Source: Spirochaetia bacterium
Lineage (GTDB): Bacteria > Spirochaetota > Spirochaetia > UBA9216
Assembly (NCBI GenBank): GCA_963675665.1
Contig: OY776510.1
Location: forward strand, 1,568,001 to 1,632,000
Direction of reading: 5' to 3'
DNA: 64,000 nt
Shown: piece after piece, positions 17,341-43,571 of the stretch
How the letters are laid out: the number at the start of each line of letters is the position of its first letter
Numbering within the stretch: the stretch's first letter is position 1
Program-made: the position numbers and the translations under genes
Notes under the pieces: generated by a model
What the model was told of the DNA's origin: nothing
Database searches by the model: none
The model's input: the letters and a program-made list of their open reading frames with translations, nothing else

Positions 17341-17469
17341 ATCTAAGCAAAGATTCATGAGCTGCGGTTTATTGAGACTTGTTTTTATATTATTATCAGT
17401 GAAGGTCTGTAAATTATATTTAATATTTCAGGAATTAAACAACAGGGAAGATGAAAAGGACAGTGCCAA

Positions 17470-18504: not shown

Positions 18505-18539
18505 CATCTCTTTTAAAAACTCCCTGAAAAACTTTTTTC

Positions 18540-18582
18540 TTGACAGAAATGGAAACAGCTTGTACAGTGGTTGTACGTACAA
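18540..18582 (+). promoter_or_regulatory. sigma70 promoter with AraR-type operator (box 1)
   Basis: TTGACA(18540-45)-17-TACAGT(18563-68)-GG-TTGTACGTACAA(18571-82); the palindrome matches the known Firmicutes AraR core. Confidence 0.85.
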
Positions 18583-18611
18583 GGTGGAGCGAAAATATTT
18601 TGGATAAAAAT

Positions 18612-19682
18612 ATGTTTTTTGGTACCAAATATGAGATGGTTCGGCAATATATCAAGCAATTGCTTGTTGACGGAACCATTGAATACGGAATGAAACTTCC
18701 CTCTGAACATGAATTAACGAAGAAATTCCAGGTAAGCCGCCAGACGATAAGACAGGCATTCAGTGAACTTGCGAATGAAGGTTTGATCTACAAACAGCAG
18801 GGCAAAGGTACTTTCAGTAATTACCAGAAAAATGTAAAGCAAAAACAGATAATTGCAGTAATAACAACATATATTTCAGAATTTGTTTTTCCCGGAATCG
18901 TATCAGGAATAGAAGATGTTCTGTCCGATGAAGGCTATATGATGCTCTTTGCAAATACAAACAACAGTAAAAGAAAAGAAGCTGAATATCTTAAAAATGT
19001 GATGGAACATAATGTTGTCGGGATAATAATAGAACCTTCAAGAAGTGCTCAGGGTAATGCTAATCTTGATATTTTTAATACAATGCGCAGCAGAGGGACC
19101 AAATTTGTCTTCCTGAACGCCTGTTATTCGGATTTTGACAGTTCGTACGTTATTATGGATGACAAAAAAGGCGGTTATATGGCCGTCGAGCATCTGCTTC
19201 AATTGGGACACCGAAGAATAGCCTGTGTTTATAAAACTGATGACAAGCAGGGTGTAGACAGAAAGGAAGGCTATATCAGGGCCCTGGAAAAGTATGGTGT
19301 TCAGGTTGACAGTACACTTATGGGCGAATATGACACCTCCGGAATGTATCTTTTTCCGTATATGTTTACACAGTCCCTGTTGCGTTCTGATGACAGGCCC
19401 ACAGCTTTTTCCTGTTACAATGATCAAAGCGCGCTGATGGTTATCCAGGCCATAAAGGACAGCGGTTTGAGATTTCCTGAAGACGTGTCTGTAGTTGGTT
19501 ATGATGATTCAATAGAAGGCATGCCTAATGATATGCGGATTACTACAATCAAGCATCCTAAAAAAGACATGGGTATCCAGGGCGCCCGGTTTATGATCGA
19601 TATGATTGAGGGGCGAATGGGAAGGCCGCAGCTTGTTTATGAACCTGAATTAATTGTAAGGGACTCCTGTCGGAACATTTAA
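18612..19682 (+). CDS. araR: AraR-type regulator (GntR wHTH fused to LacI-type effector domain)
   Basis: KYEMV..., GMKLPSEHEL..KFQVSRQTIRQA, QGKGTF, IAVITTYISEFVFP, IIEPSRSA, LGHRRIA, CYNDQ, ITTIKHPK; start placed at ATG 18612. Confidence 0.88.
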   Translation: MFFGTKYEMVRQYIKQLLVDGTIEYGMKLPSEHELTKKFQVSRQTIRQAFSELANEGLIYKQQGKGTFSNYQKNVKQKQIIAVITTYISEFVFPGIVSGIEDVLSDEGYMMLFANTNNSKRKEAEYLKNVMEHNVVGIIIEPSRSAQGNANLDIFNTMRSRGTKFVFLNACYSDFDSSYVIMDDKKGGYMAVEHLLQLGHRRIACVYKTDDKQGVDRKEGYIRALEKYGVQVDSTLMGEYDTSGMYLFPYMFTQSLLRSDDRPTAFSCYNDQSALMVIQAIKDSGLRFPEDVSVVGYDDSIEGMPNDMRITTIKHPKKDMGIQGARFMIDMIEGRMGRPQLVYEPELIVRDSCRNI

Positions 19683-19699
19683 TTTTTTTTTAAAGCAAC

Positions 19700-19724
19700 T
19701 TGTACGTACAACAAAAGTACAAGT
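19700..19724. promoter_or_regulatory. AraR-type operator (box 2) plus extra half-site
   Basis: TTGTACGTACAA(19700-11), then TACAAGT at 19718. Confidence 0.85.
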
Positions 19725-19798
19725 TACAGAATAGGGTAGTATGCGGTACCGAATTTCAGTTTCTGTGCTGCATGAATATAAACAAGAGGAGAAAAAAA

Positions 19799-20917
19799 AT
19801 GAAAAAGAAAATGATGTGTGTAGCTCTGTTGATCACCATTCTGGTGTTTAGTTCGGTCTTTGTTTTTGCCGGAGGTCAGCAGGAGCCGGTAAGCAAACCG
19901 GAAGCAGCGGCTTCAGGAGGAACTCAGGAGACAGTCAAGTATTATGATTCAAAATTCTGTCCCGCTTTAGGCAAAATTCCCGAGCCGAGCAAGCCTTATC
20001 GAATAGGCTGTTTGGTAAAAACCCTTATCAATGACTTCTGGATGGATTTTGAGAACGGCTACAATGATGCCGGAAAAGTGTATGATAAACTGCAGATAGA
20101 TGTTTACGGCGCTCCGAGTGAGACCGATCTGCTTGTTCAGAAGCAGATTCTTGATGATATGATAGCAAAGAAATATGATATACTTCTTGTCTCTCCACTT
20201 ACAGATACAAATCTTGTGGCCGCGCTAAAGACTGCAACTGACAGAGGCATTCCTATCATCAATGTATGTGATGCTTATATCAGTCCTGAAGCACAGGCTA
20301 AACATGGAATAGATATCGAATGTGTAATAGCTACTGATTTCAGGGAAAATGCAAGACTGGTTACCAGGTATATGGCCGAACTTATCGGTGATGACGGCGG
20401 TCAGATAATGCATATCATGGGATTGCCCGGCGGACGTGCTGCAGAATACAGAAAAGAAGGTTACCTCGAGGAAGTTGCCAAATACTCAAATCTGGAAAAT
20501 ATCGGTGTATGGTCCGGCGAATGGGAAAGAAAGAAAGGTATGGATATAGCTGCTGATGTTATACAGTCACATCCCAATCTGAGGGCAATTGTAGCTGCAA
20601 ATGATAATATGGCTCTGGGTGCTTATCAGGCTGTTAAAAATGCAGGAAAAACTGATCAGATTTATATCGGCGGAATCGATGCTGTACCAGATGGAATTGT
20701 TTCTGTTATAAACGGCGAAATGGTATGTACACTGCCTTTTATGCAGTATCAAATGGCTTATACCGGAATCGAGGTTGCTGTACAGATACTTGAAGGAGAA
20801 TTTGATCCTGCAAACGCAGAGATTTACGGATATCAGGAAGTTTGGCATCAGGGAAACATCGGTGACAAGGTCGACGAGTACAGGGCGCAGTTTACCGGTT
20901 TGAAAAATTTAAAGTAA
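19799..20917 (+). CDS. Sugar ABC substrate-binding protein, AlsB/RbsB-like
   Basis: MKKKMMC...VFAGGQQE signal; VKTLINDFW, GAPSETD, ANDNMALGA, GGIDA; start 19799 after GAGGAG. Confidence 0.88.
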   Translation: MKKKMMCVALLITILVFSSVFVFAGGQQEPVSKPEAAASGGTQETVKYYDSKFCPALGKIPEPSKPYRIGCLVKTLINDFWMDFENGYNDAGKVYDKLQIDVYGAPSETDLLVQKQILDDMIAKKYDILLVSPLTDTNLVAALKTATDRGIPIINVCDAYISPEAQAKHGIDIECVIATDFRENARLVTRYMAELIGDDGGQIMHIMGLPGGRAAEYRKEGYLEEVAKYSNLENIGVWSGEWERKKGMDIAADVIQSHPNLRAIVAANDNMALGAYQAVKNAGKTDQIYIGGIDAVPDGIVSVINGEMVCTLPFMQYQMAYTGIEVAVQILEGEFDPANAEIYGYQEVWHQGNIGDKVDEYRAQFTGLKNLK

Positions 20918-20954
20918 TTCTTTCAATGCACAACTAAATACGTGATAATAAAGT

Positions 20955-20991
20955 AAAGCGCGCTCCCTTACAGAAAGGGGAGCGCGCTTTT
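20955..20991 (+). terminator. Stem-loop after SBP gene
   Basis: AAAGCGCGCTCCC...GGGAGCGCGCTTTT. Confidence 0.75.
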
Positions 20992-21022
20992 GGAGAGTTG
21001 ATTAAAGGAAGGTTACTATTTC

Positions 21023-21970
21023 ATGAAGGGTAAATTTATTACGAATATTTTAAGGACGCATCTGGGCGTCCTGATTACATTACTTGTTTTATGGGTGTTT
21101 TTCAGTCTTGCATCACCATGGTTCTTTAATATAGATAATATGCTGAATATCCTTAACCATATGACAATTACCCTCATACTTGCTTTAGGTATGGTTTTTG
21201 TCATTGCATCAGGCGGGATCGATCTTTCTGTCGGATCGATTCTGGGTTTTACCGGAATTATTGTGGCTATATTTCTGAAGGCTGAAATGCCTGTTTTTAT
21301 AGCAGTAATATTGGGACTGCTTGTTGGTGCGGGCATCGGGGCTTTTACCGGTTTTCTTATCGCCCGGTTCCGGCTTCAGCCTTTTATTGTTACATTGGGA
21401 ATGTTAAGTATCGTAAGAGGGCTGGCTCTTGTTTTTTCCGGCGGATTGCCGGTTATTGGGTTTCCGTCCAACTTTACCCAGTTTTTTGCAGGTTCTGCAG
21501 GAATTCCTACAAATATCTATATAATGATATTTCTTGTCTTTGTTGTCTCAATCATTTCGGCAAAAACCAAATTTGGAGTATATACCCGAAGTATCGGCGG
21601 AAGTGAAAAAAGCGCTGTTCTTTGCGGGATTGATACTGCAAGGATAAAGATATTTATTTATATGATGCAGGGTATGCTTGCCGCAATTGCTGCTTTTGTC
21701 TATATGTCGATGATGGATGCAGCTGAACCGCTGGCCGGCTTGCAGACTGAATGGCTTGAAGCAATTGCTGCGCCCATTATCGGAGGCAACAGTTTATCGG
21801 GAGGTGTTCTGTCAGTTTTCGGAACGGTTGTAGGAGCGCTTATTCTTTCCACTGTCAGAAGCGGTTTAAATGTTATGGGCGTGCAGGCTTTTACGCAGCA
21901 GCTGGTGATAGGTTTGATTATAATAATTTCAGTTGTTATCGATTCCCTGCGCCATCGCAAAAGGCTGTAA
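21023..21970 (+). CDS. Sugar ABC permease (RbsC-like)
   Basis: GGIDLSVGS, QPFIVTLG, AIAAPIIGGNSLSGG. Confidence 0.92.
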   Translation: MKGKFITNILRTHLGVLITLLVLWVFFSLASPWFFNIDNMLNILNHMTITLILALGMVFVIASGGIDLSVGSILGFTGIIVAIFLKAEMPVFIAVILGLLVGAGIGAFTGFLIARFRLQPFIVTLGMLSIVRGLALVFSGGLPVIGFPSNFTQFFAGSAGIPTNIYIMIFLVFVVSIISAKTKFGVYTRSIGGSEKSAVLCGIDTARIKIFIYMMQGMLAAIAAFVYMSMMDAAEPLAGLQTEWLEAIAAPIIGGNSLSGGVLSVFGTVVGALILSTVRSGLNVMGVQAFTQQLVIGLIIIISVVIDSLRHRKRL

Positions 21971-21980
21971 GGGGGCGGCA

Positions 21981-23528
21981 GTGGATAATAAAGTTATAAT
22001 AGATATCAGGAATATAAAGAAAACTTACGGAGGCATTAAGGCTCTTAAGGGTGTTGATCTGAATTTAAAAGGCGGCGAGACACTTGGTCTGGTGGGTGAG
22101 AACGGAGCAGGCAAGTCTACTCTTATGAAGATCTTATGCGGAATTGAAAGTCCGGATTCGGGGGTAGGAGAAATAACATTTAACGGAACCGAAATCAGAA
22201 TGACAAGTCCCCATCAGGCCCAGGAACTCGGGATCGCTATGATTCCCCAGGAATTGATTCTTGTACCCCAGATGTCGGTAGTTGAAAATATTTTTCTGGG
22301 AAGGGAATATCTCGGAAAAAACCGGTTCCTGAAAAAGAAAGATATGATTAGCGCAACAAGAAAACTTTTGCGTGATCTTGAAAGCGAATATATTGATCCG
22401 GAAGCAACAGTTGAAAATATCCCGAAGGCTGATCAGCAGCTGGTTGCAATTGCCCGAAGACTTCATCAGGGCGGGAAAATTTTCATTATGGACGAACCTA
22501 CAGCTGCTTTTACCGAAAAGGAAACAAAAAATCTTTTTAAGGTTATAAGAGGGCTTTGTTCTTCAGGTTCCTCGGTTATTTTTATTTCTCATAGACTTGA
22601 AGAAGTTGTGGAGATTTGCGACAGAATTTCCATTCTGCGTGACGGCCAGATGATTACGACTCTTAACCGGGGGCCGGGTGTAGACAAAGCAGCTTTGATT
22701 TATCATATGGTAGGTTCTGAAATAAAAGATGAATTTCCGAAAGTTGAGGTTGAACGCGGCCGGGAAGTTTTCAGGGCCAATAATATTGCTTTTCACACAA
22801 ATCAGGGCAATCTGGTAGAAAATATCAACTTCTCTGTTCATGAAGGAGAAGTAGTTGGTATTACAGGACTGGTAGGCACCGGCAAAACCGAGTTGAGCCA
22901 GGCAATCTTCGGTTTGCGGCGAATTTTGGAGGGTGAACTTTTTGTTGAAAACAAACAAGTCCTTTTCAGAAATCCTATTGATGCGGCAAATGCCGGATTT
23001 GGCTATGTCAGTGAAGACAGACGGGGAGAAGGCCTGGTCCTGGAGATGCCGAGTCTTCATAACATGACAATAAACAGTCTTGAACGAATATCTAAAAACT
23101 TCGTCATTTCACCAAAAAAAGAGCTGGACCTGGGCGGTGAGTTTGCCGCCCGGCTTTCAATGAAAAGTGATTACCTCGATATGGAGGCCCGGCAGCTCAG
23201 CGGCGGCAATCAGCAGAAGGTTGTAATTGTCAGGCAGATTATACGTGATACAAAAATTATTATATTTGATGAGCCGACAAAAGGTATAGATGTGGCGGCA
23301 AAAAGAGAAGTAGCCCGGCTTATCGGCGAACTAAGTAAGGAGAAAAAAGCAATACTTCTGTTTTCTTCAGAACCACGTGAGGTTCTTGGAATCAGCGATA
23401 TCGTTTTTGTCCTGACAAAGGACGGTCTTGAGGGGCCGTTTTCAAGAGATTCCATCGACTATGAACAGTTGATGGCAATTGAATTCGGAAAAGATTCATC
23501 AAATGAAAAAGAGAGTTCAGAAAAATGA
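21981..23528 (+). CDS. Sugar ABC ATP-binding protein (two NBDs)
   Basis: GENGAGKST, MDEPT, LSGGNQQKV, DEPTKGIDV; GTG start at 21981 after GGGGG. Confidence 0.92.
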   Translation: MDNKVIIDIRNIKKTYGGIKALKGVDLNLKGGETLGLVGENGAGKSTLMKILCGIESPDSGVGEITFNGTEIRMTSPHQAQELGIAMIPQELILVPQMSVVENIFLGREYLGKNRFLKKKDMISATRKLLRDLESEYIDPEATVENIPKADQQLVAIARRLHQGGKIFIMDEPTAAFTEKETKNLFKVIRGLCSSGSSVIFISHRLEEVVEICDRISILRDGQMITTLNRGPGVDKAALIYHMVGSEIKDEFPKVEVERGREVFRANNIAFHTNQGNLVENINFSVHEGEVVGITGLVGTGKTELSQAIFGLRRILEGELFVENKQVLFRNPIDAANAGFGYVSEDRRGEGLVLEMPSLHNMTINSLERISKNFVISPKKELDLGGEFAARLSMKSDYLDMEARQLSGGNQQKVVIVRQIIRDTKIIIFDEPTKGIDVAAKREVARLIGELSKEKKAILLFSSEPREVLGISDIVFVLTKDGLEGPFSRDSIDYEQLMAIEFGKDSSNEKESSEK

Positions 23529-23562
23529 AAAAAGCTGTTTTCAACGAATGTCGGAGGCTTAT

Positions 23563-24525
23563 ATGGCTTTGAAAATAAGGAATAATCCATTCTTCAGAAA
23601 TTATATAGGAATAATCAGTGCAATAGTAATAATCGGAATCTTTCTTTCAATTGCATCTCCGTATTTTCTTAAGATAAGTAATTTTGTAAATATAGGTAAC
23701 CAGATAGCCCTTAATCTGATTATTGCAGTAGGAATGACAATAGTAATAACAACCGGCGGTATAGATTTGTCTGTCGGTGCCAATGTTGCTCTTACCGGAA
23801 TTGTGGTTGCGTTATTCTATTATGCGGCAGGCGGAGGTCCGGCGGCGCTGATTTTAGGGCTGGTTGTCGGGCTTGCAACAGGAGCCGGTATAGGTGTTTT
23901 TAACGGTCTGCTTGTTACAGTTCTGAATGTTCCTCCTTTTATTACAACGCTGGGAGGAATGGTTGCTTTTCGAGGTCTGGCTTTAGTATTATCGAACGGC
24001 AGGGTTCTTTACGGTTTGCCGGAAAGTTTTCAGTCTGTTTTCGGCGGATTTATATTCAATACCATACCCAAGTCCATTGTTATTGCGGTTGTTATCTCCG
24101 TTATAGGTGTGTTTATCTTAAACAAAACAAATCTCGGGCGTTATGCGAAGGCGTTGGGCGGTAATGAGCAATGCCTTCGGGTGTGCGGGATTAATATTAA
24201 TAAGATAAAAATGGGCGTATATATAATAAGCGGAGTGACCGCCGCAATAAGCAGTCTCGCGCTTACCAGTATGATGAATGCTGCAGAACCCAATGCAGGT
24301 AACTTTTATGAACTGGATGCCATAGCTGTTGTTGTTATGGGTGGTACCAGTCTGATGGGAGGGAAAGGAACAGTTGTCGGTACCATCCTGGGGGCCTTGC
24401 TTTTGGGTATTGTCCGGAATGGGTTGAATATAATGAAAGTGCCTCCCAATTTTCACCAGCTGATTGTCGGTATAATAATTCTCGGGGCAGTTATTCTCGG
24501 AAGCAAGCAAAATGATGCCGCCTGA
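23563..24525 (+). CDS. Sugar ABC permease (RbsC-like)
   Basis: GGIDLSVGA, PPFITTLG, YELDAIAVVVMGGTSLMGGKG; start 23563 after GGAGG. Confidence 0.92.
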   Translation: MALKIRNNPFFRNYIGIISAIVIIGIFLSIASPYFLKISNFVNIGNQIALNLIIAVGMTIVITTGGIDLSVGANVALTGIVVALFYYAAGGGPAALILGLVVGLATGAGIGVFNGLLVTVLNVPPFITTLGGMVAFRGLALVLSNGRVLYGLPESFQSVFGGFIFNTIPKSIVIAVVISVIGVFILNKTNLGRYAKALGGNEQCLRVCGININKIKMGVYIISGVTAAISSLALTSMMNAAEPNAGNFYELDAIAVVVMGGTSLMGGKGTVVGTILGALLLGIVRNGLNIMKVPPNFHQLIVGIIILGAVILGSKQNDAA

Positions 24526-24539
24526 TATGGAGAAGTTAA

Positions 24540-25622
24540 ATGAACAAAGATATTGTTATTAATCTTGAAAAGAGTTTTTTTACCGATAAGGAAAAAAATC
24601 TTATTGAAAACGGAAGTCTTGAGGCATCAATTTTTACCTATAAAAGCGGAATTCATGCTGTAAGGCTTAAAAATTCTTACGGCTATCTGGTTATTCTGCC
24701 GTACAAGGGGCAGCAAATATGGGATGCAGTATTCAACAATAGAAGCATGAAGATGCATACGGTGAGAAAAGAGCCTGTCGAAACAGATTTCTTCCTGAAT
24801 TCCTACAGTTGTCTTATGATGCACTGCGGGGCTCTCAGGATGGGATGTCCCGGTGAAAAGGATACTCATCCGCTTCATGGTGAATTGCCTTATGCAGATT
24901 ATTCAAGCGCCCAGATTATTACTGGAAAAGATGAAACAGGATCCTATATCGGGGTTACCGGAATTTATGAACATATACATACTTTTGCACCCAGTTATTA
25001 TGCAAGGCCCTGTGTGAAGTTTTATGAGAACAGCGGGATTTTTGATATTTCCATAGAAATTACCAATTTGCTTCATTATCCGATGGAGTTAATGTATATG
25101 TGTCATATCAATTTTAAATCGAATCAAAAGAGTTCAATCTTCCAAAGCGTCGGATGGTCGGAAAAGGACATGGTCCTGAGCATTGAACATCTGCATGAGC
25201 AGGACAAATTATCCGATGAGAAAAAGAATCTTCTTGACGCCATAAAAAAGAATCCTAAACTCACCCAAACTGTTACAAAAGATGATGTTTATGATCCCGA
25301 GATCAATTATTTCTTTAAAAACATTAAGCCGGATAAAAACGGAGAGATTCATTTTCTGCAGGTCCTTGACGACGGAACAGGTAATTATGTCGGTTATAAA
25401 CCGGATTTGCTGGATCATGCTGTACGGTGGATTTGGAAAAATGAGGATTATGATGTAATGGGAATGGTCCTTCCGTCAACATGCGAACCTGAAGGGTACC
25501 TGAGGGAAAAGGAAAAGGGTTCGATAAAGGAGATTCCCGGCAAGGGTTCGGTTGTTCTTTCTGTAAAATGCGGATATCTTAATTTAAAGGAAACGGGAGA
25601 GATGAAAAAGAATCTATGCTGA
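24540..25622 (+). CDS. DUF4432 / aldose 1-epimerase-fold protein, DeoM (deoxyribose mutarotase)-like
   Basis: FTYKSGI..VRLKNS.G..VILPYKGQQIWDA.F, HCG...GCP...DTHPLHGE, YMCHINF, LPSTCEPEGY. Confidence 0.78.
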   Translation: MNKDIVINLEKSFFTDKEKNLIENGSLEASIFTYKSGIHAVRLKNSYGYLVILPYKGQQIWDAVFNNRSMKMHTVRKEPVETDFFLNSYSCLMMHCGALRMGCPGEKDTHPLHGELPYADYSSAQIITGKDETGSYIGVTGIYEHIHTFAPSYYARPCVKFYENSGIFDISIEITNLLHYPMELMYMCHINFKSNQKSSIFQSVGWSEKDMVLSIEHLHEQDKLSDEKKNLLDAIKKNPKLTQTVTKDDVYDPEINYFFKNIKPDKNGEIHFLQVLDDGTGNYVGYKPDLLDHAVRWIWKNEDYDVMGMVLPSTCEPEGYLREKEKGSIKEIPGKGSVVLSVKCGYLNLKETGEMKKNLC

Positions 25623-26737: not shown

Positions 26738-26762
26738 GTATTATCATTTTAATAATTTTTTC

Positions 26763-26805
26763 TTGACGTATCTGCGGATTGCTTGTATAGTAGTTGTACG
26801 TACAA
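26763..26805 (+). promoter_or_regulatory. sigma70 promoter with AraR-type operator (box 3)
   Basis: TTGACG(26763-68)-17-TATAGT(26786-91)-AG-TTGTACGTACAA(26794-805); same geometry as box 1. Confidence 0.85.
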
Positions 26806-27021
26806 GAGGTTGTATAAATTACCTCAAATTGCGGTGTTATTTAATTGGATCTATAGACAGAAATACCTGGTGATAAACTGCCTGATTTTTAGGGCTTTAT
26901 TGGTGATAATGACCAACGATTCTTTAATGGAATTCCCTGGACAGGCCGGATATTCTTGGATTATCTGTATTTATAGGCAATATTATGAACTCTTCATTTT
27001 AAAAATTGTTTTTTTATTATT
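26806..27021 (+). pseudogene. Possible highly eroded remnant of a second AraR-like gene
   Basis: Occupies the slot that araR fills between boxes 1 and 2; out-of-frame fragments EIPGDKLP(26860-83), VIMT, FNGI, QAGYS are collinear with AraR motifs; matches are short. Confidence 0.3.
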
Positions 27022-27022
27022 A

Positions 27023-27048
27023 CTTGTACGTACAAGAAGCTTACAAGT
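27023..27048. promoter_or_regulatory. AraR-type operator (box 4) plus extra half-site
   Basis: CTTGTACGTACAAG(27023-36), TACAAGT at 27042; same spacing as box 2. Confidence 0.85.
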
Positions 27049-27122
27049 AGTTTTGTGGCATTATACGGTTTGCAAGCAGGGCTTGCCGGCCGTAAAAAAT
27101 AAAATAGCAAAAGGAGAGCTAA

Positions 27123-28259
27123 ATGAAAAAGAAATTGATGTGCATAGCACTGGTTGTAATGCTGGTACTTGGAGCAACGGTTGTATTTGCCGGAGGGCAG
27201 CAGGAATCAGGAGCAGCAGCAGACGATACGGTAAAAATAGGCGTATCGATCTGGGGTTACACGGACGCTTTGGGAACAAAGGTGTACAATTTTCTTAATT
27301 ATGCAGCAGACGCGCTTGATGCGGAAGTTGAGTTTGTAGCGACCGGTTTTGATACCGAGCAAACAGTAGCGAGTATAGAAAACCTGGTAGCGAGTGGGTG
27401 TGATGCGATAATCGTATGTAACTCGTCCGACGGTGTAATGCCGAAACTTATCAAGATCTGTGATGACAATGGAGTATACCTTGCACAGTTCTTCAGAAAG
27501 ATAGCTGATCCTGAAGTATTGAAGATAGCGGAAAGCTCAAAATACTACATTGGAACGACCCACGAAGATGAAATCAGCACCGGCTATAATCTTGGAAAAG
27601 CGCTTGCGGAGAAGGGCGTAAAAACCACAGCAATTATCAGTTGGAACCACGGCGATGCAACAGCAGAAGACAGGTATACAGGATATAAGAAGGCCTTTGC
27701 TGAAAGCGGAATAAAGATTCTTGCAGAGCAGTGGGAAATCATGGTAGCCGAAGAATCCGCAAAGGCAGCGGAAAGCTTCATGGCAGCCTATCCTAACCTC
27801 GAGAGTATTGTAGTAACCGGCGGAAGCGGCGAACCTCTGGCAGGAGCGGTAAGCGCAGTTGAAAACAGGGGAATGACCGGCAAGGTGCAGATAGTATCAA
27901 CCGATTTTATACCGACCTTGAGAGAAGACCTTGCGAGCGGAAGGATCTCTGCCATGTCAGGCGGCCACTGGACCGACCCGTTCTTCTCGTTCATGCTTGC
28001 CTATAACACGGTAGTCGGCGGATATGATGCGGACGGCTGGGAAGAGCTTCTTATGGACATGGTATATGTAAGCTCAGCGGAAGACTACGACAACTATGAC
28101 AAGTGGTTTAACGGTGATGTGCCTCCGTACACAACAGAAGAGATCCAGAACCTGGCTTATACCTTCAACAAGAACCATACAATTGGTGATCTGAAAGCGG
28201 CGGCGGCAGCTATCTCGCTTGAAGATGTAATGAAACGCCATGCAGGAATGATTAAATAG
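27123..28259 (+). CDS. Sugar ABC substrate-binding protein (periplasmic binding fold type I)
   Basis: MKKKLMC...VFAGGQQE signal; IENLVASGCDAII, EDRYTG, VSTDF, MSGGHW; AGGAG RBS. Confidence 0.85.
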   Translation: MKKKLMCIALVVMLVLGATVVFAGGQQESGAAADDTVKIGVSIWGYTDALGTKVYNFLNYAADALDAEVEFVATGFDTEQTVASIENLVASGCDAIIVCNSSDGVMPKLIKICDDNGVYLAQFFRKIADPEVLKIAESSKYYIGTTHEDEISTGYNLGKALAEKGVKTTAIISWNHGDATAEDRYTGYKKAFAESGIKILAEQWEIMVAEESAKAAESFMAAYPNLESIVVTGGSGEPLAGAVSAVENRGMTGKVQIVSTDFIPTLREDLASGRISAMSGGHWTDPFFSFMLAYNTVVGGYDADGWEELLMDMVYVSSAEDYDNYDKWFNGDVPPYTTEEIQNLAYTFNKNHTIGDLKAAAAAISLEDVMKRHAGMIK

Positions 28260-28272
28260 AACAAAAGAATTT

Positions 28273-28306
28273 GCGGCGGTCTTTTGCGAAAGCAACGGAC
28301 CGCCGT
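28273..28306 (+). terminator. Stem-loop after SBP gene
   Basis: GCGGCGGTC..TTGC-GAAA-GCAA..GACCGCCGT; weak U-tract, may be a stabilising hairpin. Confidence 0.55.
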
Positions 28307-28336
28307 TGTCAAATAAGGAAACGGGAAAGCTGACAG

Positions 28337-29260
28337 ATGAAAGAGCTTAAATATATTTTGTTACTTATATGTGTGCCGTTGGCGGTATACATAGTCTTCT
28401 CGATAATGCAGCCGGAAAACTTCGGCAGCTTGAACAGCATACTGATGCTGATACAGCAGTGTCTGCTGCCGTCTCTGGCGGCCTTCGGTTTTTACTTCAT
28501 TATAACGATGGGTCTTTTTGATTTCAGCATAGGCGCGAATATAGTATTGAGCGGAATATTCGGAGTAATGCTGTCGCGATCGATGGGGTATGCCGGGTTG
28601 ATACTGGGAAGTCTTGTATGCAGCGCGGCGATAGGGTTTCTCAACGGAATAATCTATACGCGGCTTAGAATCCCCTCGATAATAGTGACCGTCGGTCTTT
28701 TGATGATCTATGAGTGTTTCGGAAAATTCTTAAGCAGCGAAAGCGTATTGTCGCTGGATAAGAGCTACCGGATGTTAGGCAGCGCGCCGCAGAACATAAT
28801 AGTAAGCGCGGCGGCGATGTTTGTAGCGATATTCCTGCTAAAATATTCAAGAATAGGAACATATATCAGGGCGATAGGCAACAATGAGAATATCGCGAGG
28901 AATATGGGAATAAAGGTGGACAGGTACAAGGTGATCGGGTTTTTGATCTGCGGACTGTTTGCCGGAATAACGGCGATATTGACCGTCAGTTACAGCTCGT
29001 CGGTAGCGGCGCAGCTGCGTATGAGCAGTATGGACAGGAACTTCACGCCGATAATGGGCTGTTTTGTAGGCCTGGCGCTTAAGAAATATATAAACCCGAT
29101 AATAGCGATATTTATCGGAGAGTTTACGATTTCACTGCTGATAAACGGACTTATGACGAACGGAATAGATTCGACGCTGCAGAAGGTAATAACCGGCTCA
29201 TTTTTGCTGATAATAGTGAGTTTTACGTCATATAAAAACAAAGCCCGGGTTGTTAAATAG
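28337..29260 (+). CDS. Sugar ABC permease
   Basis: GLFDFSIGA, IPSIIVTVG, RAIGNNENIA; multiple TM segments. Confidence 0.88.
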   Translation: MKELKYILLLICVPLAVYIVFSIMQPENFGSLNSILMLIQQCLLPSLAAFGFYFIITMGLFDFSIGANIVLSGIFGVMLSRSMGYAGLILGSLVCSAAIGFLNGIIYTRLRIPSIIVTVGLLMIYECFGKFLSSESVLSLDKSYRMLGSAPQNIIVSAAAMFVAIFLLKYSRIGTYIRAIGNNENIARNMGIKVDRYKVIGFLICGLFAGITAILTVSYSSSVAAQLRMSSMDRNFTPIMGCFVGLALKKYINPIIAIFIGEFTISLLINGLMTNGIDSTLQKVITGSFLLIIVSFTSYKNKARVVK

Positions 29261-29286
29261 GTATCGGAGCGGAAGGAATTGCAGGA

Positions 29287-30789
29287 ATGGGAAAAGAAAT
29301 AATATTAAGCCTGAAAGGGTTGTGCAAAACATTTGGTCCGACGAAAGCCCTGGATGATGTAAGTTTTGATATATACCGCGGAGAGATACGCGGACTGATA
29401 GGAGAGAACGGGTCCGGAAAATCGACAGCGATGTCGGTGGTAACCGGAATCCACCGGAAAGACGGCGGAGAAATGGTTTTTAACGGAGAAGAATATAACC
29501 CGGCAGATTTGCTGTCAGCGAACCAGTCCGGGATAAGCATAATAATGCAGGAAATGAATACCATTGAGGGATTGACGGTATCAGAGAATATCTTTTTGGG
29601 ACATGAAAAAGATTACCTTGTCTTCGGCTTCAAGAATATGGGAATGATGAACGCCGCAGCAAAGAAGCTGCTGGAAGAGTACGGGCTTGATGAAATAGAC
29701 CCGTCACTGGATATAGGTCATTTCAGCTTTGAAGAACGGAAGATGATAGAACTTGTGAAGGCGGTCAATTTTGAACCGCAGCTGTTTATAGTGGACGAAA
29801 CGACAACGGCGCTGTCGCAGGACGGGCGGGAGAAGCTTTACGGGATTATGAAAAGGCTCAAGGAAGAAGGCCGGTCTGTAGTTTTCATCTCGCATGATCT
29901 GCCCGAGGTGCTGCAGTGGTGCGATACGATAACGGTGCTGCGCGACGGAAAGTTTATCGACACGGTGGAAAAGAGCAGTGTGGATGAAGACGATCTGAAA
30001 CGGCTGATGGTCGGACGCGAACTCGGTGAGAAATACTACCGTGAAGATTATGAAAAGTTTGAGGGAAGTGAAAAGGTTTTAGAGATAAAAAGCATCACGA
30101 TCCCCGGGGTTCTGCATGATATAAGCCTTGATTTGCACAGGGGCGAGATCCTCGGAATAGGCGGTCTGACCGACTGCGGCATGCATGAGCTTGGAAAGGT
30201 TATATACGGAGCGGAGAAAAATTACAGCGGGAAGGTGATTTTGAGCGGGAAGAATGTAGAGATAACCGACATAAAGCAGGCGATTGATTTGGGGATTGGT
30301 TATGTATCGAAGAACCGGGACCAGGAAGCGCTGATGCTGTATTCGAGTATCAGGGACAATATCTGTCTGGTGTGCCTTGATGATCTTGAAAGAGGAATAC
30401 ATATATCGGACAAGACCGAAAAAAGCTTTTCGGAAGAGTTCAGTAAAAGACTGCAGGTGAAGATGACGTCTGTGGAACAATTCATCTCTGATCTGAGCGG
30501 AGGGAACAAACAGAAAGTGTCGGTGGCCAAGTGGCTGGCGAAAGGGTCGGATATCCTGATACTCGACTGCCCTACGCGGGGAATCGACGTGAAGGTGAAA
30601 GCAGCGATATACGAGCTGATGGAAGAGCTGAAAGAGCGGGGGAAGTCAATAATAATGATATCCGAAGAGCTGCTTGAGCTTATAGGAATGTGCGACCGGA
30701 TAGTGATTCTGAAGCACGGAGCAATCTCCGGAGATGTTGAAAGAAAGAAAGATATGTCTGAGGAAGAGCTCATAGATTACATGATATGA
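29287..30789 (+). CDS. Sugar ABC ATP-binding protein (two NBDs)
   Basis: GENGSGKST, VDETT, LSGGNKQKV, LDCPTRGIDV. Confidence 0.93.
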   Translation: MGKEIILSLKGLCKTFGPTKALDDVSFDIYRGEIRGLIGENGSGKSTAMSVVTGIHRKDGGEMVFNGEEYNPADLLSANQSGISIIMQEMNTIEGLTVSENIFLGHEKDYLVFGFKNMGMMNAAAKKLLEEYGLDEIDPSLDIGHFSFEERKMIELVKAVNFEPQLFIVDETTTALSQDGREKLYGIMKRLKEEGRSVVFISHDLPEVLQWCDTITVLRDGKFIDTVEKSSVDEDDLKRLMVGRELGEKYYREDYEKFEGSEKVLEIKSITIPGVLHDISLDLHRGEILGIGGLTDCGMHELGKVIYGAEKNYSGKVILSGKNVEITDIKQAIDLGIGYVSKNRDQEALMLYSSIRDNICLVCLDDLERGIHISDKTEKSFSEEFSKRLQVKMTSVEQFISDLSGGNKQKVSVAKWLAKGSDILILDCPTRGIDVKVKAAIYELMEELKERGKSIIMISEELLELIGMCDRIVILKHGAISGDVERKKDMSEEELIDYMI

Positions 30790-30801
30790 GAAGGGGTTGG
30801 A

Positions 30802-31725
30802 ATGAACAGGAAGATAAATATACAGAGAATGATACCCTTTGCCGGCCTGGTGGCAGTAATAGTGCTGTTTTCAGTATTAACCTCAGGAGAGCTTGTAACA
30901 GTAAAGAACATGAAGCTGGTATTGGAGCAGGCAATACTGGTGATGGTATCAAGTATAGGGGTGTTGTTTGTAATGACGCTGGGAAGCCTTGACTTCTCGC
31001 AGGGATCGATACTTGGAATCTGCTCGATAATAGCGACGACGGTATCGCATGCGAATATCCCGCTTGCGGTATTCCTGACGCTTGGAGCCGGACTATTGAT
31101 AGGGTTATTGAACGGAAGCATGCATGCAAAGTTGAAGATACCCTCGTTTATAGTGACGATCTGTACAATGTTTATATTCAGGGGGCTGACGTCTTACATT
31201 ACGCGAAAGAAAGCGCTGCAGATACCGTTTCGGCTGTATGATTTTGACGAGCTTGTCTATAAACTGCCGCTGCTTTTGCTGCTGCTTTTGATAGGTTTTT
31301 ATGTGTTTACGTATACACGGCTTGGAAAACAGTGCCGGGCGATAGGGTCCGGAGAGATAGCGAGTTTTTATGCCGGTGTAAAGGTGGATAAAATAAAGAT
31401 AATAGCGTTTGGAGCGGCAGGTCTTATGGGCGGAGTGACGGCGCTGTTTAATATAGTAAGGGTGGGAACTGCGTCTGCGAACACGGGTCTGCTGCATGAA
31501 ACGAACATTCTGATAGCGATAGTGCTGGGCGGAACGGCGGTAACCGGCGGAGCAAAGACAAAGTTCAACAGTGTGATAATAGGCAGCCTGCTGCTTGCGG
31601 TGCTGGCGAACGGGCTTGTTTTATTGGGTATAGATATAGCGGTACAGCAGCTGCTTAAAGGACTGATATTCCTCGGCGCTGTTTATCTGACCGTGGAGAA
31701 AGGCAGTAATTATGCTGTTAAATAG
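30802..31725 (+). CDS. Sugar ABC permease
   Basis: GSLDFSQGS, IPSFIVT, IAIVLGGTAVTGG. Confidence 0.9.
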   Translation: MNRKINIQRMIPFAGLVAVIVLFSVLTSGELVTVKNMKLVLEQAILVMVSSIGVLFVMTLGSLDFSQGSILGICSIIATTVSHANIPLAVFLTLGAGLLIGLLNGSMHAKLKIPSFIVTICTMFIFRGLTSYITRKKALQIPFRLYDFDELVYKLPLLLLLLLIGFYVFTYTRLGKQCRAIGSGEIASFYAGVKVDKIKIIAFGAAGLMGGVTALFNIVRVGTASANTGLLHETNILIAIVLGGTAVTGGAKTKFNSVIIGSLLLAVLANGLVLLGIDIAVQQLLKGLIFLGAVYLTVEKGSNYAVK

Positions 31726-31750
31726 CAAAAACATATAAGGAGTATTTATC

Positions 31751-33085
31751 ATGAACAAGGTAGTTATTATTGGGGCAGGCAGTTCAATGTTCACTAAAAA
31801 ATTATTGGGCGATTTATTGTCGTTTGATGATATGAATATTGATGAATTCAGTCTGGTGGATATTAATAAGGAGAAGCTTGCCGTTATAGAAAAGGTAGCT
31901 GAAAAACTATGTTCTCAATTCGGGAAGAAAGTAAAGATATCGACAACAGATAAAAGACGGGATGTTCTGAAAGATGCACGCTGGGTAATTAATACTATAG
32001 GTGTAGGCGGCGTGGAAGCCTACAGGCAGGACCTGGAAATTCCGGATAAGTACGGACTAAGCCAGTGTATAGGAGATATTATCGGGCCGGGCGGTATGTT
32101 CAGGTTTCTGCGGGCTTATCCGGAGCTGCTTAGAATATGCAAAGACATGGAAGACCTTTGTCCCGATGCGTATTTTTTCAATTATACCAACCCTATGGCA
32201 CCGCTGTGCCTTGCGCTTCACAAATCTACAAGCATAAAGGTATTCGGTTTCTGTCACAATGTTCAGAGCACAGCACAGCAGCTTTCGAACTATCTGCAGG
32301 TTGACGAATCAAGAATTTCATACTGGGCTGCCGGAATTAACCATATGGACTGGTTTCTTGAATATAAAGTCGACGGCAAGGATGCTTATCCGAAACTGTT
32401 TGAAATATCGCAGAATGATGAAGATATAATCAAGCTTGCCGATTATGAGCAGGATTACAAGAGTATGGGGGTAAGGCTTGTTGACCTCGTAAGATTCAAG
32501 ATTATGCATAATTTCGGAAGATATCCGTCGGAATCTCCTTTTCACATGTCCGAGTATGTTCCTTACTTTAGAAAAAATGAGAAGATGATTGAGGATTTTC
32601 AGGTTACCAACAGATGGTGGTTTGCCCATGAATGTGCAGCTGATGAGTACTTTGAGGAGTTGAAAGGAATGCTTGAGTCGGGGCAGGATATCCCATGTGA
32701 GAAAACATTTGAATATGCACCGGAAATTATTCATGCAAATATAACCGGAAAACCTTTCAGGTCAAATCTTAATGTTATGAATACAGGGCTTATATCGAAC
32801 CTTCCGGAAAACAGTGTAGTAGAGGTTCCGTGTTATTCGGATACTGAAGGTATTCATCCGTGTTATGTAGGCGAACTTCCCTATGCTCTTGCTGCGTTAA
32901 ACCTGACAAATGTTAATATGCATATAGGAATGGCTGAAGCTGCAATAAGCAAGAAAAAACAGAGGATTTATGATGCGGTTAAGATGGATCCGCTGACAGC
33001 TGCCAAACTGACGCTTGATCAGATTGATGATATGGTTGCGGAATTGATAGAGGCCAATGCTGAATACCTTACCGATTTTGAATAG
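31751..33085 (+). CDS. Glycoside hydrolase family 4 (NAD+/Mn2+-dependent), alpha-galactosidase MelA-like
   Basis: IIGAGS, D.EIP.KYG..Q..GD..GPGG, NYTNPMA, GFCHNVQ (metal Cys), AGINHM, ESPFHMSEY.PYF, VVEVPC, DPLTAA. Confidence 0.9.
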   Translation: MNKVVIIGAGSSMFTKKLLGDLLSFDDMNIDEFSLVDINKEKLAVIEKVAEKLCSQFGKKVKISTTDKRRDVLKDARWVINTIGVGGVEAYRQDLEIPDKYGLSQCIGDIIGPGGMFRFLRAYPELLRICKDMEDLCPDAYFFNYTNPMAPLCLALHKSTSIKVFGFCHNVQSTAQQLSNYLQVDESRISYWAAGINHMDWFLEYKVDGKDAYPKLFEISQNDEDIIKLADYEQDYKSMGVRLVDLVRFKIMHNFGRYPSESPFHMSEYVPYFRKNEKMIEDFQVTNRWWFAHECAADEYFEELKGMLESGQDIPCEKTFEYAPEIIHANITGKPFRSNLNVMNTGLISNLPENSVVEVPCYSDTEGIHPCYVGELPYALAALNLTNVNMHIGMAEAAISKKKQRIYDAVKMDPLTAAKLTLDQIDDMVAELIEANAEYLTDFE

Positions 33086-33126
33086 AGCCTGACAGTTGAA
33101 GCAGGAAATATAAACGAATGATCCAT

Positions 33127-33152
33127 GCAAGCTGTCCGAAAGGGCAGCTTGC
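33127..33152 (+). other. GNRA-capped hairpin between GH4 and M24-like gene
   Basis: GCAAGCTGTCC-GAAA-GGGCAGCTTGC. Confidence 0.55.
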
Positions 33153-33181
33153 TGTTTAAGATTTGATTTAGGAGTCGCCGC

Positions 33182-34279
33182 ATGACTGATGAAATAAGAT
33201 TCAAGGAAAAACAGCTTAGGGAATATATGGCTGAAAAAAAGCTCGACGGGATTTTATTTTCCACCAGAGAGTTTTTTTCATGGATAACGGGAGGTTCGGT
33301 AGATTATATAATAGAAACAACCGAGATAGGTGTTGTTGATCTGCTTATTACCCGGGAAGGAAAATACTGTATAGCCAGCAAGATTGAACGGTTCAGAATA
33401 ATGGAAGAAGAGCTTGCCGGGCTTGATTATGAGGTTCTTGAATTCAACTGGTGGGAGTCGGACAATAAAAGCATAGTGGCCGAAGTCATGCATGGTAAAC
33501 GGTTCGGCGCCGATACGGATTTTCCCGGGGGAATTAATGTGTATGAAGAACTGAAGCCCCTGAGATATTCGCTCAGGCCTGAAGAGGTTGAAAGATTCAG
33601 GAAATCTTCATTTGAGTGTGCAGTAGCGCTGGAAGAAACCTGCAGATCGATCAGGGTCGGAATGACGGAATTCGAGATTTGCGGTACGCTAATGAAAAAT
33701 GCCATGGATTTTGGTATTGAACCTGCTGTTGCACTTGTGGCGTCGGATGAAAGAATTTCGAAATACCGGCACCCGATACCGAAAGGAAAAAAGATAGAAA
33801 AATATGTTCTGGTTGTTATATGCGGCAGAAGGGAAGGGTTGATAACAAGCTGTTCAAGGTTTGTTCACTTTGGAGAACCTCCCGCAGAAATAAGGGAAAA
33901 ACACTCAAAAATTATTAGGGTTGATGCTGAATATATTACAAATACGATACCGGGAAGAAAGGTTTCAGACGTATTTAAATTTGCAATGAATAAGTATAAA
34001 GAAATTGGTTATGAAGACCAGTGGCAATTCCTGCATCAGGGAGGTCCGGCAGGATATTCCATACGGGATTATCACGGAACACCCTGCGTGGAAGGTTCTG
34101 TGATGCCCAATCAGGCTTTTGCATGGAACCCTTCTGTGCCGGGAACCAAGTCGGAGGATACAATCATAGCTACGGAAAACGGGCCGGAAATTATTTCTGC
34201 AACAGGGAAATGGCCTGTAGTTGAAGTTACTGCCGGGAACGGTATAAAGGTGGACCGACCGGATATCCTTGTAATGTAA
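33182..34279 (+). CDS. M24-fold protein with non-canonical active site (HQGG type)
   Basis: Creatinase-N-like start (F.WITGG), IRVGMTEFEI, KYRHP, VICGRREGLITSCSRFV (no Asp ligands), LHQGGPAGY, AWNPS, KSEDT. Confidence 0.8.
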   Translation: MTDEIRFKEKQLREYMAEKKLDGILFSTREFFSWITGGSVDYIIETTEIGVVDLLITREGKYCIASKIERFRIMEEELAGLDYEVLEFNWWESDNKSIVAEVMHGKRFGADTDFPGGINVYEELKPLRYSLRPEEVERFRKSSFECAVALEETCRSIRVGMTEFEICGTLMKNAMDFGIEPAVALVASDERISKYRHPIPKGKKIEKYVLVVICGRREGLITSCSRFVHFGEPPAEIREKHSKIIRVDAEYITNTIPGRKVSDVFKFAMNKYKEIGYEDQWQFLHQGGPAGYSIRDYHGTPCVEGSVMPNQAFAWNPSVPGTKSEDTIIATENGPEIISATGKWPVVEVTAGNGIKVDRPDILVM

Positions 34280-34315
34280 GAATTATTCCTGCTCTGGCTT
34301 GTTGGATGGGGGCTG

Positions 34316-36640: not shown

Positions 36641-36648
36641 GCCGATAT

Positions 36649-38423: not shown

Positions 38424-38455
38424 ATACTTCCCCTCCGGATTTCCTCCTGAAGAAT

Positions 38456-38485
38456 AAAAAGGAGCCCGGTTCGGACTGGGCTCCT
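38456..38485 (-). terminator. Stem-loop/terminator after SBP gene
   Basis: Minus strand AGGAGCCCAGT-CCGA-ACCGGGCTCC-TTTTT. Confidence 0.7.
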
Positions 38486-38520
38486 CATACTGACAGGCTC
38501 AGGAATCCTCAAGTGTCTTT

Positions 38521-39780: not shown

Positions 39781-39808
39781 TTTTGAACACTCCTTCATTA
39801 TTAATTAG

Positions 39809-43561: not shown

Positions 43562-43571
43562 AGGAGAAAAT

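Follow-up and report, generated by a model that had tools for sequence, protein, structure and literature searches.

A probable local AraR regulon in a Spirochaetia bacterium, with a proposed GH4-CUT2 importer core and a candidate sugar-level family of M24-fold proteins lacking metal ligands

The arabinose regulon of Bacillus subtilis (araABDLMNPQ-abfA, araE, araR, xsa and abnA) is controlled by AraR, a chimeric repressor that joins a GntR-type DNA-binding domain to a LacI-type effector domain. AraR recognises a palindromic operator with the published 16-bp consensus ATTTGTACGTACAAAT, of which the 12-mer TTGTACGTACAA is the core, and two such boxes allow cooperative, looped repression (PMC1950556). 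One box is located at the promoter of the repressor gene itself, and paired boxes are found at target promoters. Here we analyse a stretch of 64,000 nucleotides (hereafter the window) from a Spirochaetia bacterium (assembly GCA_963675665.1, contig OY776510.1, positions 1,568,001 to 1,632,000), in which araR and four AraR boxes accompany two consecutive gene modules between positions 18540 and 34279. Each module encodes an ATP-binding cassette (ABC) importer of the CUT2 type, one further sugar-related protein (a DUF4432 protein in module 1, a GH4 glycosidase in module 2) and a protein with the fold of M24 peptidases (P0001 in module 1, P0002 in module 2). In our judgement the best explanation overall, and a rather probable one, is a local AraR regulon with a GH4-CUT2 core for an arabinose-yielding glycoside, a P0002 that acts at the level of the sugar, and a module 1 of mosaic origin.

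The products of these modules have counterparts in several described systems. The M24 fold comprises, besides the Xaa-Pro dipeptidases and aminopeptidase P (M24B), metal-free or non-peptidase proteins such as creatinase, DoeA/EutD, Ebp1 and the N-domain of Spt16. In Bifidobacterium longum, the disaccharide Gal-alpha1,3-Ara (galactose linked to arabinose) is freed from gum arabic by the enzyme GAfase, taken up by an ABC importer and split inside the cell by a GH36 alpha-galactosidase/beta-L-arabinopyranosidase (PMC8367640, PMC8056906); the beta-L-arabinopyranosidases assigned so far belong to GH27, GH97 and GH36 (PMC8056906). Finally, the published sulfo-TAL cluster for sulfoquinovose (SQ) contains a DUF4867 gene (SftX) between the transaldolase and glucosidase genes (PMC7491151). 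The DUF4867 family, whose genes neighbour those of the FucI and FGGY families, has been proposed to consist of mutarotases or ring isomerases (PMC11968277), and the SftX-type gene has been called an SQ mutarotase candidate (PMC11659671).

On its domains and operators, the regulatory system of the window is a member of the AraR kind, and all defining features that lend themselves to testing were found. The GntR winged-helix domain (PF00392) occupies residues 30-92 of the long araR open reading frame (ORF), whose likely start is 18600 or 18612 rather than 18540, and is fused to a LacI/GalR-type effector domain that matches the B. subtilis AraR structure 3tb6 over residues 68-355 (E 2.6e-63, 217 bits); the next-best solved sensor of the LacI type reaches 119 bits. 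The first-pass annotation had proposed an AraR-type system with four perfect TTGTACGTACAA boxes at 18571, 19700, 26794 and 27024, and both the system and the boxes stand. These four are the only perfect copies of the 12-mer in the 5,150,563-bp genome, and one of them begins 3 bp past the -10 element of araR itself, i.e. at the repressor's own promoter. With up to two mismatches allowed, the window contains six sites; dinucleotide-preserving shuffles (100 in number) averaged 1.4, and none of them reached six. Sites with one mismatch are at chance level across the genome (11 matches per strand, compared to 15 for a reversed control pattern).

The boxes fall into two classes, each with its own extended sequence. 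The operator TTTTTCTTGAC...GCTTGTAyAGT..TGTACGTACAAG, which abuts the -10 element, is common in alignment to the araR promoter, the module 2 promoter and the region 5' of araR in the congener G403, while a second class (ACTTGTACGTACAA, then TACAAGT) unites the 19700 and 27024 sites with the araR-GH4 spacer of the same congener. A consensus scan found identical geometry in the two promoters of the window, both being plus-strand, sigma-70-like sites with 10 of 12 matches. The paired boxes are separated by 1129 bp across araR, in the host as well as in G403, and by 230 bp ahead of module 2, unlike the small loop of B. subtilis. We further observed that a TACAAGT half-site is conserved 6-7 nt past the downstream-class boxes (19712-19730 and 27036-27054 of the window, and the araR-GH4 spacer of G403, locus L237); it may be an extra half-operator, of a type that the passages of PMC1950556 consulted do not describe for AraR of B. 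subtilis. As the consensus scan detected no sigma-70-like promoter in the spacer between araR and the first substrate-binding protein (SBP) gene, araR is probably cotranscribed with module 1 in a single operon under its own control. A simple terminator scan revealed nothing convincing after araR, module 1 or module 2, an Rfam search of positions 17000-35000 (E<=0.1) gave no match, so that the 230-bp leader of module 2 is without a known riboswitch, and no remnant of araR was found in that leader by tblastn and blastn.

The AraR system as such is textbook; its target set is unusual. Whereas in B. subtilis the catabolic genes are themselves members of the regulon, the boxes of the window govern only araR, the two CUT2 importers, the GH4 glycosidase, the DUF4432 protein and the two M24-fold proteins. 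The upstream genes are an FGGY kinase gene (minus strand), a LacI regulator, araD, araA, an unassigned 227-aa ORF, a GH51 gene, a third CUT2 system, whose SBP is YtfQ-like, and another LacI-like protein, and at none of them was an intergenic AraR box found within two mismatches. That the arabinose genes are devoid of boxes and adjoin two LacI-family regulators would suit a paralogue of AraR that answers to another effector. In that case the modules would serve sugars other than arabinose, module 1 for instance allose-like hexoses and module 2 glycosides that are rhamnose-linked or of galactose. The AlsB-like SBP of module 1, whose orthologue in the genome G120 is encoded near a Ribul_P_3_epim gene and PfkB kinases, points in the same direction, as does the occurrence of the module 2 cassette beside RhaM and GH106 elsewhere. 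However, the sensor matches B. subtilis AraR much better than it does the other LacI-type sensors of solved structure, araR is part of an arabinose cluster, next to araA, both in the host (G000) and in G403, and a GH51 arabinofuranosidase gene belongs to the same block. We consider a paralogue with a different effector quite unlikely and regard L-arabinose as the putative releasing effector.

What belongs to the core of this regulon becomes apparent from the genus. An AraR orthologue (81% identity) was found in one of five congeners, G403, where the FGGY gene is followed by LacI-araD-araA-box-araR-box-GH4-SBP-permease-ATPase-permease, the first box having one mismatch and the second being perfect. 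Compared with module 2, the GH4 protein is 87% identical, the SBP 42%, the two permeases 53% and 45% and the ATPase 52%. The AraR locus of G403 contains neither an M24 gene nor module 1. Since its AraR unit consists of GH4 and importer without M24, what is stable is the AraR-controlled GH4 gene with the module-2-type CUT2 importer beside araA, to which both M24 genes were added. GH4 likewise adjoins the module-2-type importer in all four loci in which that importer was found, i.e. the window, G403, L033 and L036, the last three having SBP orthologues of 42-49% identity.

The glycosidase is complete, with both the N-terminal (PF02056, 1.5e-53) and the C-terminal domain (PF11975, 5e-48) of GH4 and an N-terminal GAGS motif, which we take to be the NAD site. 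It scores 501.2 bits against the NCBIfam model of the alpha-galactosidase subfamily (NF011657/PRK15076), above the cut-off of 486. In shape, beta-L-arabinopyranose closely resembles alpha-D-galactopyranose, and families of alpha-galactosidases commonly have both activities. From the subfamily assignment, this likeness and the import of Gal-alpha1,3-Ara by B. longum, we infer that module 2 probably imports and cleaves a small, arabinose-yielding glycoside capped by galactose or arabinopyranose (Arap). The proposed import of Gal- or Arap-(1,3)-Ara with cytoplasmic cleavage would resemble the gum arabic system of B. longum (PMC8367640, PMC8056906). The two differ in that the glycosidase of B. longum belongs to GH36, and here a GH4 enzyme of predicted activity is combined with an importer of the CUT2 type; no extracellular releasing enzyme like that of B. 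longum was identified in the window.

The M24-fold protein of module 2, P0002, is predicted to be a metal-free pita-bread protein and not a peptidase. When aligned with the prolidase of Pyrococcus furiosus (1pv9), four of its five metal ligands are lost (D209 to a gap, D220 to S, H284 to G, E313 to Q) and the last Glu is the only one left; the same loss extends over a 28-member alignment of the family. A single remaining ligand of five rules P0002 out as an M24-type metallohydrolase. The fold itself is retained: the AlphaFold2 (AF2) model (mean predicted local distance difference test, pLDDT, 92.8) has the creatinase_N and pita-bread domains of prolidase and creatinase, and Foldseek aligned it to prolidases, creatinase and DoeA at template modelling (TM) scores of 0.72-0.82. 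P0002 thus resembles creatinase and the other metal-free or non-peptidase M24-fold proteins, and it keeps, besides the last Glu, the conserved histidine of M24B (H197, according to the 1pv9 alignment). It differs from proteins of the creatinase/DoeA type, to which it is 14-21% identical, in its invariant residues and in a context of sugar rather than creatine or ectoine catabolism.

The family of P0002 is large and under constraint. At E<=1e-10, 2861 of 5152 candidate proteins belong to it; at E<=1e-30 it counts 648 representatives of clusters at 50% identity. In the phylum, 27 of the 401 genomes sampled have a relative, and one family accounts for 14 of these, out of 17 genomes. Matches in the ESM Atlas are confined to clusters named M24. 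Over 28 sequences with identities down to 26%, 24 residues are invariant (among them D189, R196, H197, R226, R295, K323 and E325), and the motifs DERIxxYRHPIPT, TRFVHFG, HQGG and WNPSxxGxKxED recur, a pattern that speaks against decay and for a polar site kept by selection.

To characterise the gene contexts of this family, 20 genome loci with 277 called ORFs were compiled, of which 225 were scanned with Pfam (distant ORFs and all 18 of locus L049, 52 in total, were left aside) and 15 rescanned loosely. Four sugar contexts account for 15 of the 19 loci scanned. In type A (L034, L037, L040, L041, L042) a FucI/AraA-like isomerase and/or an FGGY kinase adjoins the M24-like gene, here X; type B (L033, L036, L039, L044, L045) has RhaM-X with GH4 and/or GH106; type C (L031, L038, and L035, which was typed by its neighbours, the M24-like gene itself being masked by ORF calling) has the order X-TctCBA-GFO/IDH/MocA-GntR; and type D (L048, L050) is sulfo-TAL-like, with TRAP, TauE, a sulfolactaldehyde (SLA)-reductase-like protein, a FucI-like isomerase, GH31, X and a transaldolase. 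The remaining loci are L032, L043, L046 and L047, of which L046 is without a sugar gene. A metagenome scan with a narrower family alignment yielded 560 relatives, of which 80 loci were kept; 38 of these had sufficient flanks, and two ORFs on each side were scanned (111 proteins; L169, with ORF sizes and order as in L157, as well as L138 and a few long or distant ORFs were left out). Sugar genes were present within two genes of the P0002 relative in 23 of the 38, in arrangements such as AraA-X-ADH-FGGY (L157), FucI-like-X-FGGY (L149 and L180, the latter with a class II aldolase), FucI-like-X-GalT-GalK (L209), GalK-X (L150, L175), MalK-X-GalE-GalT (L134), GH42...X...GH2 (L170, L177, L187) and GFO/IDH/MocA-X-LarA-like-Amidohydro_2 (L156, L200). 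The suggestion of the first-pass annotation that the second M24-fold protein is a non-peptidase tied to sugar loci is upheld by the ligand loss and by these contexts. Members of the family may thus be accessory enzymes at the monosaccharide stage of catabolism.

Such positions, as in fucIKU, galETKM and rhaBADM, are usually occupied by mutarotase genes. No PF01263 mutarotase was detected among 336 neighbour ORFs of P0002 relatives (E<=1e-8 or stricter), and no DUF4867 gene among the ORFs scanned in the sulfo-TAL-like loci L048 and L050; genomes with sulfo-TAL-like or similar M24-like genes likewise gave no DUF4867 match (0 of 5), in a search that was weakly positive in the host genome. Because of the mutarotase-like positions, the missing PF01263 genes and the missing DUF4867 gene in type D, we rate a mutarotase analogue that would interconvert anomers or ring forms as the single most likely reaction of P0002, although as an assignment it is tentative. 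Its operon neighbours, isomerase and kinase genes or a glycosidase, are those of DUF4867/SftX and of GalM, RhaM and FucU, to none of which the family is related in sequence or fold, and the mutarotase role of DUF4867 is itself a proposal. The alternative that P0002 represents a missing aldose-ketose isomerase was rejected, as FucI/AraA-like isomerases adjoin the M24-like gene in the same loci.

As a separate observation, the sulfo-TAL-like loci L048, L049 and L050 (genomes G211, G293 and G144) constitute a variant with an M24-like gene, and no DUF4867 gene was found in them. Four papers on sulfoquinovose (PMC7491151, PMC11968277, PMC11659671, PMC13219744) do not mention this variant; M24 and peptidases are absent from all four, and Xaa-Pro or creatinase in three of them (PMC7491151, PMC11659671, PMC13219744). 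A literature search pairing M24 or Xaa-Pro with sugar pathways retrieved nothing relevant by title or abstract opening.

Several points weigh against the reading of a GH4-CUT2 core for an arabinosyl glycoside and a sugar-level P0002. CUT2 importers usually carry monosaccharides, and uptake of a disaccharide is an assumption; the identity of the AraR effector is inferred, and the specificity of GH4 was assigned from one NCBIfam subfamily model. No GH4 beta-L-arabinopyranosidase is named in the titles and abstract openings of the papers listed by one search (ten of 15). In L033 and L036 a module-2-type cassette is accompanied by RhaM (in L036 also by GH106) and no AraR box is present; the substrate may therefore differ between lineages. 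AraR is found in just one of the five congeners, and relatives of P0002 in none. In 15 of the 38 metagenome loci no sugar gene was found, the neighbours including TilS, HSP20 and ACC, and two long members of the P0002 family are fused to prephenate dehydratase or DUF1385; as functional clues these fusions are uninformative or mildly contrary. Finally, RhaM adjoins the M24-like gene in five loci and the host genome has genes of the GalM type elsewhere, so that no gap for a mutarotase is evident.

Module 1 presents a different picture. P0001 is predicted to be an intact binuclear-metal hydrolase of the M24B type, as the five metal ligands (D235, D246, H310, E339 and E353, aligned to 3q6d and 1pv9) are kept and are invariant in 22 sequences, and it matches prolidases in the Protein Data Bank at E 7e-30. 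It shares these ligands and the fold with the Xaa-Pro dipeptidases and aminopeptidase P, but unlike the M24B prolidases its clade has motifs of its own (YGDFR, HAGHGxGxxHPExP, ExNY), is rare in the host phylum and is represented here in an AraR-controlled sugar importer operon. Among 401 genomes sampled from the phylum, the host was the only one with a P0001-like gene; in the class such genes were found in 6 of 401 genomes, and in five congeners and ten genomes of the family in none. They are common in Planctomycetaceae; a contig search gave 543 relatives, of which 80 were kept. The nearest named relatives are from Marispirochaeta metagenome-assembled genomes, with two genomes of the host class at equal identity (50-51%); the closest homologue, P0124, has 60% identity and is encoded on a 5.38-Mb contig.

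The first-pass annotation had named, as a result that would speak against its view, M24 homologues that occur mostly outside sugar loci, and for P0001 the answer is divided. Outside the class, where 83 of 154 called ORFs at 16 loci were scanned, none of the 16 has a sugar transporter, glycosidase or sugar kinase adjoining the P0001 relative; Pyr_redox_2 is directly upstream in six and Aminotran_1_2 directly downstream in seven, followed in five by an alpha/beta hydrolase (Abhydrolase_1), and an enolase-superfamily gene is directly upstream in both Marispirochaeta loci. Within the class, by contrast, two of three further loci have a sugar context: SBP-histidine kinase-AraC-type regulator-M24-GntR in G676, with a CUT2 system, an enolase-superfamily gene and GalK nearby, and M24-FGGY-SorC in G581.

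The DUF4432 protein was expected to be mutarotase-like, and its fold agrees with this. Its AF2 model has a pLDDT of 78.7, with residues 85-115 poor; Foldseek placed 3ty1, a putative aldose 1-epimerase, on top (TM 0.75/0.70, E 5e-18), followed by GalM structures at TM of about 0.5-0.58, and H95, H110, H113, E115 and H189 are invariant in the alignment. Relatives occur in 8 of 401 genomes, arranged as FGGY-DUF4432-FucI or LacI-DUF4432-GATase1_like-PfkB, and none was found beside a P0001-like gene (0 of 10 places); the literature search for DUF4432 retrieved only unrelated papers. Orthologues of the transporter (64-70% identity, SBP 64%) occur in the same order in G120 with other enzymes, namely SDR, MttB-like, ADP-ribosylglycohydrolase-like, URO-D-like and PfkB proteins and Ribul_P_3_epim nearby, and the DUF4432 orthologue of that genome (68%) is on a separate contig (L227). 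Module 1 thus brings together an AlsB-like importer, the DUF4432 protein with its mutarotase-like fold and P0001 as a predicted intact M24 metallohydrolase; because its genes sit apart in other genomes, it appears to be a mosaic that arose in this lineage and came to lie behind araR. We note in passing that URO-D-like proteins, which have the uroporphyrinogen-decarboxylase fold, recur in sugar loci near M24-like, DUF4432 and module-1-type transporter genes (L147, L150, L198, L227, L231, L233, L246, L249).

The terminal position of both M24 genes in their operons, and their absence from the AraR unit of G403 and from all five congeners, would also be expected of mere passengers, i.e. an ordinary prolidase-like peptidase and a decayed pseudo-enzyme without any role in sugar metabolism. 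The mostly non-sugar contexts of P0001 relatives and the housekeeping neighbours or fusions in part of the P0002 family are compatible with this. Yet the 24 invariant residues of the P0002 family point to a defined site under selection, unrelated lineages repeatedly show a member flanked by isomerase and kinase genes or by glycosidase genes, and P0001 overlaps the DUF4432 gene by 7 nt; we regard passengers as unlikely.

A glycoconjugate pathway had been proposed instead, in which both modules import a sugar linked to an amino acid or amide (glycosides of hydroxyproline or serine, N-glycosides, Amadori- or opine-like compounds) and the M24 and GH4 enzymes split the link. The M24 fold does include non-peptidases such as creatinase and DoeA, which were among the Foldseek matches, P0001 is a predicted hydrolase whose gene is translationally coupled to that of a mutarotase-fold protein in a sugar importer operon, and the sugar loci of its in-class relatives fit as well. 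Each module would then have one hydrolase and one anomer-processing fold. For P0002, however, the ligand loss speaks against the cleavage of such a link, as does G403, in which AraR, box, GH4 and ABC importer do without any M24 protein, and the operons of its relatives are of the ordinary monosaccharide kind, with genes for an isomerase and a kinase, for the Leloir pathway or for glycosidases. The P0001 loci outside the class and the DUF4432 relatives without a P0001-like neighbour speak against it for module 1, no amino-acid catabolic gene was found in either module by Pfam, and in the one literature search made for mannopine cyclase or agropine synthase with M24 or creatinase, neither opine enzyme is mentioned in the papers listed (ten of 21). 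The glycoconjugate pathway is improbable as a whole and survives for module 1 as a minority reading.

The features of the locus are compiled in Table 1. The gene order SBP-permease-ATPase-permease-X-M24 in both modules, and the lack of kinase, isomerase and dehydrogenase domains in either, were confirmed by Pfam and NCBIfam, and Pfam recovered a full CUT2 importer in each (Peripla_BP_4 SBP, two BPD_transp_2 permeases and one fused double ATPase). The modules are parallel in layout but not in sequence: the SBPs are 25% and the ATPases 33% identical and the M24 pair has no BLAST match at 1e-5, which indicates that they are not duplicates of each other. The best NCBIfam match of the module 1 SBP is the D-allose SBP, with 172.9 bits under a cut-off of 335.

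Table 1. Genes, promoters and operators of the AraR-controlled locus (positions in the window)
Feature	Position	Strand	Families and remarks
araR promoter	18540..18568	+	-35 TTGACA, 17-nt spacer, -10 TACAGT; 10/12 consensus matches, sigma-70-like
AraR box O1 (promoter-class operator)	18571..18582		perfect palindrome; begins 3 bp past araR -10
araR	18612..19682 (start 18600 or 18612)	+	GntR-type helix-turn-helix and LacI/GalR-type sensor; Pfam GntR, Peripla_BP_1, Peripla_BP_3
AraR box O2 (downstream-class operator)	19700..19711		in araR/SBP1 spacer; 1129 bp from O1
Module 1 SBP (CUT2 type, AlsB-like)	19799..20917	+	Peripla_BP_4 3.4e-45
Module 1 permease a	21023..21970	+	BPD_transp_2
Module 1 double ABC ATPase	21933..23528	+	ABC_tran, two stretches
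Module 1 permease b	23479..24525	+	BPD_transp_2
DUF4432 protein, mutarotase-like fold	24540..25622	+	PF14486 1.4e-12
Module 1 M24 protein P0001	25616..26737	+	Peptidase_M24 6.3e-37; overlaps DUF4432 stop by 7 nt
Module 2 promoter	26763..26791	+	-35 TTGACG, 17-nt spacer, -10 TATAGT; 10/12; near-copy of araR promoter cassette
AraR box O3 (promoter class)	26794..26805		begins 3 bp past module 2 -10
AraR box O4 (downstream class)	27024..27035		230 bp from O3; 88 bp ahead of SBP2 start
Module 2 SBP (divergent CUT2 type)	27123..28259	+	Peripla_BP_4 6.2e-24
Module 2 permease a	28337..29260	+	BPD_transp_2
Module 2 double ABC ATPase	29287..30789	+	ABC_tran, two stretches
Module 2 permease b	30802..31725	+	BPD_transp_2
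GH4 glycosidase, MelA-like (alpha-galactosidase) subfamily	31751..33085	+	Glyco_hydro_4, Glyco_hydro_4C
Module 2 M24-fold protein P0002	33182..34279	+	weak PF00557 1.1e-9

Among the upstream neighbours, the FGGY kinase beside LacI-araD-araA (4914-6599, minus strand) has XylB as its best NCBIfam match with 98.6 bits against a cut-off of 380 and lies far below the cut-offs for both ribulokinase and xylulokinase; the gene, which is 71% identical and in the same position in G403, probably encodes an atypical ribulokinase. The 227-aa ORF between araA and GH51 (10053-10736) has no Pfam or NCBIfam match and is absent from the ara locus of G403 according to BLAST. Directly past module 2 (34316-41042), the minus strand encodes a GH65 phosphorylase and a CUT1 ABC system (SBP_bac_1, two BPD_transp_1), after which a LacI regulator lies on the plus strand (40029-41042). 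The region 42470-49315 (regulator at 41123-42157, minus strand) contains a fourth CUT2 ABC system, then Dak1 and Dak2, which are dihydroxyacetone-kinase-like, and a small cupin with a Ureidogly_lyase match, for which DUF4867, the proposed ketose ring isomerase or mutarotase family of sulfoquinovose clusters, remained below threshold (27.1 and 25.6 bits in two scans). Finally, a minus-strand cluster at 49441-54829 (GntR(FCD)-LarA-ETF beta-ETF alpha with ferredoxin domain-FAD-linked oxidase, ETF being electron transfer flavoprotein) looks like lactate racemase with an electron-bifurcating lactate dehydrogenase.

Under the explanation that we favour, AraR would repress the araR-module 1 operon and module 2 through two copies of one promoter/operator pair, in which one box abuts the -10 element and the second lies downstream. 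The substrate of the module-2-type importer would be a small glycoside that ends in an alpha-D-galactopyranosyl or beta-L-arabinopyranosyl group, for example Gal-alpha1,3-Ara or Arap-beta1,3-Ara from arabinogalactan side chains, which the cytoplasmic, NAD-dependent GH4 enzyme would cleave. The freed L-arabinose would then lift repression by AraR and enter the araA/FGGY-kinase/araD route encoded upstream. P0002 would act at the monosaccharide stage, possibly by interconverting anomers or ring forms, and module 1 would be a later mosaic that was brought under AraR.

As a conserved AraR target beside araA, the GH4 glycosidase is possibly the first beta-L-arabinopyranosidase of its family, or an alpha-galactosidase for arabinose-linked galactose, and the CUT2 importer that feeds it may carry a glycoside. 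The main lead is the family of P0002, which is annotated everywhere as 'M24 metallopeptidase' or 'Xaa-Pro aminopeptidase', a systematic mis-annotation, and which marks an unassigned step in common sugar pathways. That these M24-fold proteins without metal ligands form a new class of sugar enzymes, which would likeliest act on galacto-configured and related sugars as mutarotases or ring-form isomerases, is a possibility that we put forward with reserve. A bolder corollary is that each AraR module would pair one hydrolase with one anomer-processing protein, in which case P0001 would cleave an imported sugar conjugate in module 1. If the new class is real, its sugars would be L-arabinose, D-galactose, L-fucose, L-rhamnose and sulfoquinovose, and in many operons its members would take the place of GalM, RhaM or DUF4867.

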